NCBI RefSeq assembly: GCF_017348835.2
Contig: NZ_CP071375.1
Direction: 5' to 3' (one strand)
DNA: 64,000 nucleotides
From: Escherichia coli
GTDB taxonomy: Bacteria > Pseudomonadota > Gammaproteobacteria > Enterobacterales > Enterobacteriaceae
Each line of letters starts with the position of its first letter. Positions within the stretch are counted from its first letter, which is position 1. Below are positions 34,778-37,354 of the stretch, piece by piece. The notes under the pieces were generated by a model, which was not told the DNA's origin, ran no database searches, and worked only from the letters and a program-made list of their open reading frames with translations. The position numbers were made by a program, and so were the translations under genes.

Positions 34778-36073
34778 TTACAACGGATAATGCGCGACGT
34801 ACACTGCTTGCTGGTCATTAATTTTCTTCTCTTGCGCAAATCCTTCTTTAACAATCGTCCGTAAATCAGTTCGCGCTGTATTATCAGAGACGCCCAGACT
34901 CGCGCTGGTTTCAGAAACTGTGTACTCTTTCCCCGGATTGGCGAGCATCACATTCAGGAGCGTTACCTGGCGAGGATTCAGGCGTTTAAGCACACCAGAG
35001 CTAAACAGCACACTATCGAGTTTTGCGCTTCGTTGTGTAATTTCATCAATATGCTGCTGCAAGTTATGCAGAGCGCGTTTAATGACATCGGCCTGATATT
35101 CAAGGAAATAAGTCAGATCCATACCGTCTGATTCAGTGTACTGGTAGCTGGCAGCATATTTGACTGGCGCAGCATGAAGCAAACGGCTGATGGAAATATA
35201 TTTAAAGACATCGTAGCCCGATTTCAGCATATACCAGTAAAACAGCGCCCGACTGGTGCGCCCGTTGCCATCGCGAAATGGATGTTCATGGGCCAGCATA
35301 AAATGCAGAATGCAGGCACGGATTAACGGGTGAATATACCCTTCATGGCTGTTTAACCACTGGCAAACTTTTTCCAGTCGTTCCGGTAACAATGCCGCAG
35401 CGGGCGGTTGGTGCACAATATTGCCGTCATAATCGGCGATCACGACATCATCTGTTTCACGAAATTCACCTGGACGATATTTCGCGTCATTTATTCCCCC
35501 CATGCCAATGGCATGTAACTGGCGAATAAGCGCAGGTGTCAGCGGTTCTGCGAGTAAGTGCGGAATTTCCGCCATCAGCCGGGCATTTCCCGCAATCATA
35601 TGCTCGTCTTCAGTGCGTGGCGACCGTCCTGTTTCCAGCATTTTTCTCGCCACCAGCGTTGTAGTATTCGCACCTTCCAGCTGGGAGCTGGTGATCGGCT
35701 CTTCCAGGCGTAACTGGCTTAACTCGGCTCCGGCCCCGCGTAACCGTTCAGTCTGATCTTTCAGCGCCAGCGCGGTAGCACGTTTGTCGACAAGCTCGCA
35801 CGCTTCTGCAATCACCGGGGTAATGTTGAATCCGGCCTGTTCACCCGCTTCATTGCAATAATTAATTCGTTGGATCGCCGCGTTGCGCGCCAGACGGGTA
35901 AGCGTCCACGCCACATCGACGTTTTCTCCTTTTTTGATGCGGTACTGCAACTCATCAAAAGGCAGATAACGTCCTTTTTCATCGGTAACCCGGTTAAAGC
36001 GCAGGTGGGCCAGGAGTTCCTCACCCGATAAGTGTGATAAAGGAATAAGTCCGGGAGGTGATTTGATAGCCAT
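34778..36073 (-). CDS. Fic-family protein (putative AMPylator) with C-terminal winged-HTH-like domain
   Basis: 431-aa ORF carrying canonical Fic motif [12 protein letters not shown] and a candidate N-terminal inhibitory motif SSQLEG ([ST]xxxE[GN]). Confidence 0.8.
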
Positions 36074-36078
36074 GTGCT

Positions 36079-36157
36079 TATCTCAAAAAAGCGCAATATT
36101 GAGATAGTGTATAGCAGGAAAGAGAAACTATCTCAAAAAAAGCAAGTTTTGAGATAG
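36079..36157. promoter_or_regulatory. Two copies of a palindromic operator-like motif (C)TATCTCAA-N12-TTGAGATA(G) just upstream of the Fic gene start
   Basis: Read directly: arms 36080..36087/36100..36107 and 36128..36136/36149..36157, 49 bp apart. Confidence 0.6.
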
Positions 36158-36202
36158 TTGAAAAAGCGGCTGACAATTTGCCAGCCGTTGTTGGAATGAT
36201 GA

Positions 36203-37354
36203 TTACATTGCGGCGCGATAAATCGCCACAATTTCTTCGTGAGTTGCCTGGATCGGGTTAGTAAAGCCACAGGCATCTTTCAGGGCATTAGCCGCCAGAA
36301 CCGCGAAATCTTCTTCTTTCACGTTCAGATCGCGTAGGCCTGCCGGGATATCCACTTTCTTCGCCAGTTCACGGATGGCGTTAATGCAGGCTTCAGCACC
36401 TTCCGCGTCGTTTTTACCAGTCACATTCACGCCCATTGCAGCGGCACAGTCACGCAGACGTGCAGCGGCGACTTTGCTGTTGAATACCTGAACATGCGGC
36501 AGCAGAACGGCGTTACATACACCGTGTGGCAGGTTATAGAAACCGCCCAGCTGGTGCGCCATCGCATGAACATAACCCAGAGAAGCATTATTGAACGCCA
36601 TACCGGCGAGGAACTGGGCATAAGCCATTGCTTCACGCGCTTTCGCATTACTGCCATCTTCAACGGCTAATGGCAGGTTTTCGGCAATCATGGTCACGGC
36701 TTTCAGTGCGCAAGCGTCAGTGATCGGCGTAGCGGCAATAGAAACATACGCTTCGATAGCGTGCGTTAAGGCATCCATACCCGTTGCGGCGGTCAGTGAC
36801 TTCGGCATACCAATCATCAGAGAGGAGTCATTGACAGAAAGCAGCGGAGTGACATGTTTATCAACAATCGCCATTTTGATATGACGCGCTTCGTCAGTGA
36901 TGATGCAGAAACGGGTCATTTCAGAGGCCGTACCCGCCGTGGTATTGATGGCGATCATCGGCAGCTGCGGTTTTGCAGAGCGGTCAACGCCTTCGTAATC
37001 GCGAATATCGCCGCCATTGGCTGCCACCAGCGCAATACCTTTTGCGCAGTCGTGCGGAGAACCACCGCCTAAGGAGATCACGCTATCGCAATTATTTTCT
37101 TTAAGTAATTTCAAACCTGCGGCGACGTTTTCCGTGGTGGGGTTAGGTTGGGTGCCATCATAAATAATGCTAAAAATATTGCGTTCTTCCAGTGCTTTTT
37201 GCACATCGCCCGCCATACCTAATTTCGTTAACATACTGTCAGTGACAATCAATGTACGGCGAAACCCATATTCTGCCATCATATTCATTGCATCAGCCAA
37301 TGAATCAGCGCCGATGACATTCACAGAAGGAATAAAAAAGGTTGAAGCTGCCAT
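36203..37354 (-). CDS. yiaY: Iron-containing alcohol dehydrogenase
   Basis: 383-aa Fe-ADH ORF ([19 protein letters not shown]…). Confidence 0.9.

Follow-up and report, generated by a model that had tools for sequence, protein, structure and literature searches.

Tandem palindromes upstream of an accessory Fic gene of Escherichia coli as candidate operators for autoregulation by the Fic protein

The Fic locus and its paired palindromes

The window, by which we mean the whole stretch of 64,000 nucleotides that was analysed, is a segment of the E. coli chromosome whose minus strand carries aldB, a Fic family gene, yiaY, selB and selA, in that order. The Fic gene is accessory. It is present at the aldB-yiaY locus in approximately 1572-1575 of 5426 complete E. 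coli genomes (about 29%), with O157:H7, O145 and UTI89 among its carriers, and it is absent from K-12. A literature search for Fic together with aldB and yiaY found nothing. This distribution in E. coli and the occurrence of relatives on plasmids of Klebsiella, Aeromonas and Vibrio are compatible with a putative role in defence or as a toxin. On the downstream side only 107 nt separate the Fic gene from aldB and, because of this short distance, there is no room in E. coli for a small downstream antitoxin gene; a linked antitoxin in that position was therefore rejected. On the upstream side the stretch from the Fic start codon to the yiaY stop codon measures 129 nt and holds both of the palindromes that are the subject of this report. 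The features of the locus are as follows.

34778-36073, minus strand: Fic family gene, 431 amino acids, between aldB and yiaY
34793-34975, minus strand: C-terminal winged helix-turn-helix, residues 367-427 in an AlphaFold2 model, with the predicted recognition helix at residues 397-409
36079-36106, minus strand: proximal palindrome (O1 or P1), a putative operator, TATCTCAA-AAAAGCGCAATA-TTGAGATA; it ends 5 nt from the Fic ATG and spans the predicted transcription start and 5' UTR
36108-36116, minus strand: predicted extended -10 element, TGcTATACA, directly upstream of O1
36129-36156, minus strand: core of the distal palindrome (O2 or P2), a putative operator, TATCTCAA-AAAAAGCAAGTT-TTGAGATA
36126-36159, minus strand: full extent of O2, with perfect 13-nt arms AACTATCTCAAAA and TTTTGAGATAGTT and an 8-nt centre
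36131-36136, minus strand: predicted -35 element, TTGAGA, 5 of 6 positions matching TTGACA, formed by the gene-proximal arm of O2
36167-36187, minus strand: intrinsic terminator of yiaY, a G+C-rich hairpin with a T run after it
36203-37354, minus strand: yiaY

Both palindromes follow the pattern TATCTCAA-N12-TTGAGATA, with a start-to-start distance of 50 bp, and both were found at the coordinates given in the first-pass annotation of this DNA. Their assignment there to the Fic promoter region is fair, since they are bounded on one side by the start codon of Fic (36071-36073, minus strand) and on the other by the yiaY terminator, which forms the distal boundary of the Fic regulatory region. The 30-nt units of O1 and O2 are 80% identical. 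The spacers had been called identical and this is incorrect, for AAAAGCGCAATA and AAAAAGCAAGTT are unlike at 6 of 12 positions. In its full form O2 is the more extended of the two, and its arms, at 36126-36138 and 36147-36159, enclose a loop of 8 nt. The same annotation had also placed the sites on one face of the helix. This description suits the two half-sites within a palindrome better, their centres being 20 bp apart, or about 1.9 turns. For the two palindromes relative to each other it is only approximate, as 50 bp corresponds to 4.8 turns and the equivalent distance in homologous loci ranges from 49 to 52 bp.

It had further been claimed that such a pair would be unlikely to arise by chance, and the counts bear this out. 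With up to two mismatches allowed, TATCTCAA-N12-TTGAGATA is matched twice in the 64-kb window, compared with 0.02 matches expected from shuffled sequences, and none of 100 shuffles reached two matches. When three mismatches were allowed, one more match appeared in the 64 kb, which is at the level of chance. These shuffles, together with the enrichment across species described below, rule out a chance origin of the palindromes.

The Fic protein and its winged helix

The product of the gene matches the Pfam Fic domain (E 1.4e-19) and possesses the catalytic motif HxFx(D/E)GNGRxxR at residues 264-275. Within this motif the H, F, D, G, N, G, first R and last R (R275) are invariant in the homologues, and position 274, a serine here, varies between S and A. 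The inhibitory motif (S/T)xxxE(G/N) is present N-terminal to the core as SSQLEG, residues 129-134; S129, Q131, L132, E133 and G134 are invariant across the homologues and S130 is nearly so. Since the inhibitory motif is N-terminal and invariant or nearly invariant, the protein belongs to class II of the Fic enzymes.

A monomer model was obtained with AlphaFold2 from 61 homologues (mean pLDDT 89.9, pTM 0.84). In this model the C terminus folds as a winged helix-turn-helix, with helices at residues 367-378, 386-393 and 397-409 and strands at 413-417 and 423-427, that is, three helices and a beta-hairpin wing. Pfam matches to HTH_DeoR and HTH_5 near residues 376-413 are weak (E 0.01-0.06). When the model was compared with the PDB by Foldseek, the top matches were CbFic2 (8cil), SoFic (3zcn and 3eqx) and CccR (7xux), over about 355 columns and with 17-21% identity. 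From sequence alone, the alignment to these three proteins is limited to the Fic core. The N-terminal 120 residues form a longer segment than in SoFic and CccR. The PADLOC model for SoFic is matched over residues 96-427 (E 9.5e-44), while the NCBIfam SoFic equivalog model scores 40.3 bits, below its cut-off of 550. Because the first of these models matches and the second fails, the 431-residue protein is, as judged from its sequence, a relative and not an equivalog, and would represent a distinct subfamily with the same architecture.

The motif at homologous Fic loci and elsewhere

One genome per species was scanned, and 80 loci were recovered with homologues that are 33-94% identical to the E. 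coli protein. Start codons of the homologues were set from the conserved N-terminus, MxIKxPP. Two copies of the motif lie upstream of Fic in E. albertii and Pseudescherichia, and one copy was found in other cases (Photorhabdus, strain RIT691). The motif is also present upstream of Fic, mostly in two copies, in Ningiella, Glaciecola, Pseudoalteromonas, Marinomonas, several Pseudomonas and the cyanobacterium Leptolyngbya, and the Fic proteins of this latter set are only about 40% identical to that of E. coli. From Enterobacterales to cyanobacteria, the genomic contexts of the motif-bearing homologues are unrelated. No neighbouring gene family is shared among the loci, except for synteny within the Pseudomonas fluorescens group, and it follows that the Fic gene does not carry a separate regulator along with it. 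A linked second regulator was rejected for this reason.

The association was quantified in 75 loci with the pattern CTCAA-N12-TTGAG, allowing at most one mismatch and taking as upstream the 130 nt before each start codon. The upstream regions, 9.7 kb in all, contain 48 matches, and the remaining 419 kb of these loci contain 10 matches, which are scattered. These values correspond to 4.9 and 0.024 matches per kb, respectively, a difference of about 200-fold. At least one upstream site is present in 29 of the 75 loci, and two or more in 18. The preference for a spacer of 12 nt is marked, with 48 matches at this length and at most 12 at every other. Counted from the ATG, the cores fall into two clusters, one at -22 to -32 and the other at -73 to -82; 26 homologous loci have a proximal site whose core precedes the ATG by 22-32 nt, and in 19 loci a distal copy is located 49-52 bp upstream of the proximal one. 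The TAT of TATCTCAA falls outside the search pattern and its base identity is nevertheless kept, while the spacers are variable. Among E. coli and E. albertii sequences substitutions are few, and they are found in the spacers, flanks and terminator loop, with none in the arms. The first-pass annotation had proposed a dimeric helix-turn-helix regulator acting at two sites in the Fic promoter, and this comparative evidence, drawn from sequence, supports that proposal.

Among more distant homologues, in which the region of the recognition helix is different, the same place is occupied by AACTCAA..TTGAGTT, by AACGCAA..TTGCGTT or by long inverted repeats that are wholly different. A copy on a Klebsiella plasmid carries TTAACTCAA..TTGAGTTAA, 8 nt before the ATG. 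A search for a residue-to-base code that would relate the recognition helix to the half-site revealed only a coarse co-variation at the level of subfamilies. No simple code emerged, because the groups with SDNTARNDLR and SYNTAxxxLNGL have the same half-site.

Some loci depart from the common arrangement. In Alcanivorax quisquiliarum (L033) there are three copies of the putative operator, at about -130, -80 and -30 from the Fic start, at intervals of 50 bp. In the Pseudomonas fluorescens group (L020-L059) the proximal site is ACTCAA-N19-TTGAGAC, placed around an inner CCTCA-N6-TGAGG palindrome, and the distal site is degenerate, TTTCAGAA..ATTGAG. Several Fic copies in this group have truncated reading frames.

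If the motif were a generic repeat, as the first-pass annotation allowed, it should be met at many loci that have nothing to do with Fic. A scan of viral contigs for the exact pattern gave 15 matches, all single and none near a Fic gene, a number that we consider close to chance, judging by the approximate size of the collection rather than by a computed expectation. An exact-match scan of metagenomes returned at least 120 loci. Among the matches listed, the motif stands immediately upstream of a Fic homologue in 17 loci, and all 12 tandem pairs are at Fic genes or a remnant of one, with 18 Fic loci overall. The DNA around the 103 listed single matches away from Fic is richer in AT, and 46 of these matches fall within open frames of 100 amino acids or more, as background would be expected to give. 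The remnant is in a human gut metagenome (L112, 2715-3050), where both putative operators are intact before a truncated Fic N-terminus. There the Fic frame stops after about 36 codons (MPIKRPP...DDKGHRV*), as in a decaying copy that has retained its regulatory region. The generic-repeat explanation was rejected on the basis of these two scans, in which the viral matches are all single and away from Fic and every listed metagenome pair is associated with Fic.

The E. coli alleles that lack Fic carry traces of the same words. In the K-12-like allele the aldB-yiaY spacer (L003:385-455; L002:380-482, also Fic-less) reads GGGTTACA up to the junction and GAGATAGTT beyond it, and the parts of the window matched to the Fic-less junction are 34778-34790 and 36150-36159. 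A rarer and more diverged Fic-less allele has GAGATAAC and, in addition, one whole orphan palindrome (CTCTCTCAAAAATCGCAAATTTTGAGATAG). By their sequences, these alleles look as if an ancestral Fic cassette had been lost in steps, through deletion at GAGATA words or between them.

In both Fic-less alleles the junction coincides exactly with a GAGATA half-site, and the gene is accessory, being confined to about 29% of E. coli genomes. These facts would suit a reading in which the palindromes are recombination sites or the ends of a mobile Fic cassette. We regard that reading as highly improbable. In the window no matching copy accompanies the 3' end of Fic, nor is one consistently found there in the homologous loci, and no recombinase is linked. 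Moreover, the palindromes keep a fixed position with respect to the start codon as well as to the -10 hexamer, as would be appropriate for operators, and deletion at or between the repeated GAGATA words explains the junctions more simply.

It might also be proposed that the palindromes are operators for a host transcription factor that is unlinked to Fic, and the retention of a half-site or of a whole palindrome in the Fic-less alleles could be taken to favor this. However, those sites look like remnants of deletion. The motif follows Fic into unrelated genomes, onto plasmids and into cyanobacteria without any conserved neighbor, and it changes in the distant Fic subfamilies, so that all of these hosts would need to possess the unlinked factor, and it would need to co-vary with Fic in each of them. 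An unlinked regulator is therefore quite unlikely.

Predicted promoter and proposed autoregulation by the Fic protein

When it is read in the direction of the gene, the upstream region has the form CAACTATCTCAAAACTTGCTTTTT-TTGAGA-TAGTTTCTCTTTCC-TG-C-TATACA-CTATCTCAATATTGCGCTTTTTTGAGATAAGCAC-ATG, in which 17 nt separate the -35-like TTGAGA from the -10-like hexamer. In the scan of homologous loci, a hexamer of the type TAnnnT is present 3-6 nt before the proximal CTCAA core in 11 of the 19 two-site loci. A similar hexamer can be discerned by eye in the other aligned upstream regions, often preceded by TG, and the use of an arm in the -35-like position recurs in homologues. In the loci where the sites are 51 bp apart, the variant form of the arm, TTGAGACA, supplies GAGACA at a distance of 17 nt. 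An A-to-C change at one arm position is uncompensated in 8 of 22 distal sites, and this may be because GAGACA at 17 nt serves as the -35 element. A consensus promoter scan did not list the minus-strand Fic promoter, because its rule requires a T at position 6 of the -10 element, where E. coli has an A (TATACA). It follows that comparative alignment is the sole basis of the promoter model, and the promoter elements and the transcription start are given here as predictions. As predicted, the distal palindrome would lie on the -35 element, and the proximal one would cover the start, near 36101 +/- 3 on the minus strand, together with the greater part of a 5' UTR some 28 nt long, a layout that is suggestive of repression.

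Because both palindromes could also form stems in RNA, a different function must be weighed, in which the proximal copy is a stem in the 5' UTR that hides a weak ribosome-binding GAGA and the distal copy is a second terminator for yiaY. The distal palindrome does fold well, at -14.1 kcal/mol (z = -6.2), is flagged as terminator-like and is followed by TCTCTTTCCT. If the predicted promoter is right, the proximal copy is transcribed and holds the sole GAG resembling a Shine-Dalgarno sequence. However, the conserved -10 hexamer is located downstream of the distal copy, which is also met in contexts without any preceding gene in need of a terminator, and the proximal stem is weak (-7.3 kcal/mol, with a 12-nt loop). 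The pattern of substitution also argues against a role in RNA. It is the identity of the arm bases that is kept, compensatory changes are few, and the uncompensated A-C position in the distal sites suits a -35 role (GACA) better than pairing. Between arm and ATG there are anywhere from 0 to 10 nt, a spread that suits a fixed Shine-Dalgarno sequence poorly, and a search of Rfam over positions 35800-36400, with E up to 1, gave no match. Taken together, these points make RNA hairpins an improbable primary function, and the proximal stem might still have a secondary influence on the GAGA.

The palindromes probably serve as operators at which the Fic protein itself negatively regulates its own gene. 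This reading is favored because the motif is co-inherited with Fic, the arms are conserved in base identity, a winged helix is modelled at the C terminus of the protein and there are published precedents. We infer that the Fic protein is the binder, that it acts as a dimer and that the effect is repressive. In outline, a Fic dimer would bind each TATCTCAA-N12-TTGAGATA through its two C-terminal winged-helix domains; the half-site centres are separated by 20 bp, about two helical turns. The distal site would overlap the -35 box, for which its own arm TTGAGA would serve, and the proximal site would extend from just past the -10 element to 5 nt before the ATG, including the predicted transcription start. 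Occupied sites would thus exclude RNA polymerase, and a potentially toxic AMP-transferase would be held at a low and self-limited level.

Such control has a counterpart in Phd/Doc and other type II toxin-antitoxin operons, in which negative autoregulation, through palindromic operators lying across the toxin gene's own promoter, holds the toxin at a low level, and Doc-type toxins possess the Fido fold. In type II systems a separate antitoxin protein both binds the DNA and neutralises the toxin. The E. coli protein differs from this scheme, since the DNA-binding domain and the inhibitory helix are in one polypeptide and the Fic gene stands alone.

A closer precedent is CccR of Yersinia pseudotuberculosis, a Fic protein with a C-terminal helix-turn-helix (PDB 7xux), the dimer of which represses its own promoter, with dimerisation required (PMC9755527). 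Its operator, defined by footprinting and mutation, is an inverted repeat, AGATAATCAT-N26-ATGATAATCT, near the -35 and -10 elements (PMC9755527). The predicted structure of the 431-residue protein matches CccR over the whole length of the latter (Foldseek E 7e-11), but the two are only about 18% identical, and CccR, at 380 residues, lacks the extra N-terminal part. In place of the single repeat with its 26-nt spacer, there are here two 8-N12-8 palindromes 50 bp apart. CccR is also reported to be secreted by the type VI system, whereas nothing here suggests secretion.

The best structural match is CbFic2 of Coxiella burnetii (PDB 8cil; E 1.9e-12), which is likewise a class II Fic protein with a winged helix-turn-helix (PMC10628234). 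This domain is DeoR-like in CbFic2, and the dimer interface is N-terminal (PMC10628234). The binding of CbFic2 to DNA is largely without sequence specificity, and DNA stimulates its AMPylation (PMC10628234). No operator or autoregulation has been described for CbFic2, in contrast to the reading proposed here. The AMPylation of CbFic2 is switched on by DNA-induced dimerisation and, by analogy, it is conceivable, if rather unlikely, that occupancy of the two operators at their fixed distance sets the oligomeric and catalytic state of the E. coli enzyme. The toxin would then be released or activated when the operator DNA is lost or competed for, as might occur in phage infection. Were this so, the promoter and the enzyme would constitute a one-gene module and a self-contained sensor, with an operator almost unchanged from enterobacteria to cyanobacteria.

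Autoregulation by a Fic protein is thus already known in kind, from CccR and from SoFic, which is discussed below. The new elements are the operator word, its tandem geometry, the predicted use of an arm as the -35 box, the breadth of taxa in which the cassette occurs and the link to an uncharacterised E. coli gene. The analysis provides a precise, predicted model of the operators and promoter for a Fic gene found in some 29% of the complete E. coli genomes, and it finds the same putative regulatory cassette with members of this Fic subfamily in distant bacteria and on plasmids.

Proteins of the SoFic type have been reported as toxins in anti-phage defence (10.1101/2022.05.11.491447; PMC12249575). 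The dimer of SoFic itself, from Shewanella oneidensis, binds the 100 bp before its own start codon, and no motif was named (bioRxiv 10.64898/2026.07.09.737422). Like SoFic (PDB 3eqx, 3zcn), the E. coli protein is predicted to combine a dimerisation region, a Fic domain with an inhibitory helix and a winged helix-turn-helix, but phmmer aligns the two in the Fic core only (E 4.5e-7). EcSofic is accompanied by a small downstream antitoxin, AS1, for which the E. coli Fic gene leaves no room. In the promoter of SoFic (mloA), as given in Table S2 of bioRxiv 10.64898/2026.07.09.737422, we find five occurrences of ATGTCGAT/ATCGACAT, all no more than 140 nt from the start codon, where 0.009 are expected. 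We suggest this word, which is not named in the preprint, as a candidate for the SoFic operator. The E. coli Fic promoter uses a different word. More generally, the operators of the characterised winged-helix Fic proteins differ from those of the E. coli Fic gene both in sequence and in geometry, and these proteins are only 17-21% identical to the E. coli one. Because the CccR and SoFic promoters use other operator words, the sequences suggest a rule whereby each subfamily of winged-helix Fic proteins would have its own operator in its own promoter. If this rule is true, the operators of such proteins should be predictable from sequence. As to the SoFic word itself, the arrangement ATGTCGAT-TGA-ATCGACAT sits in the SoFic fragment that the authors found to be best bound (bioRxiv 10.64898/2026.07.09.737422).
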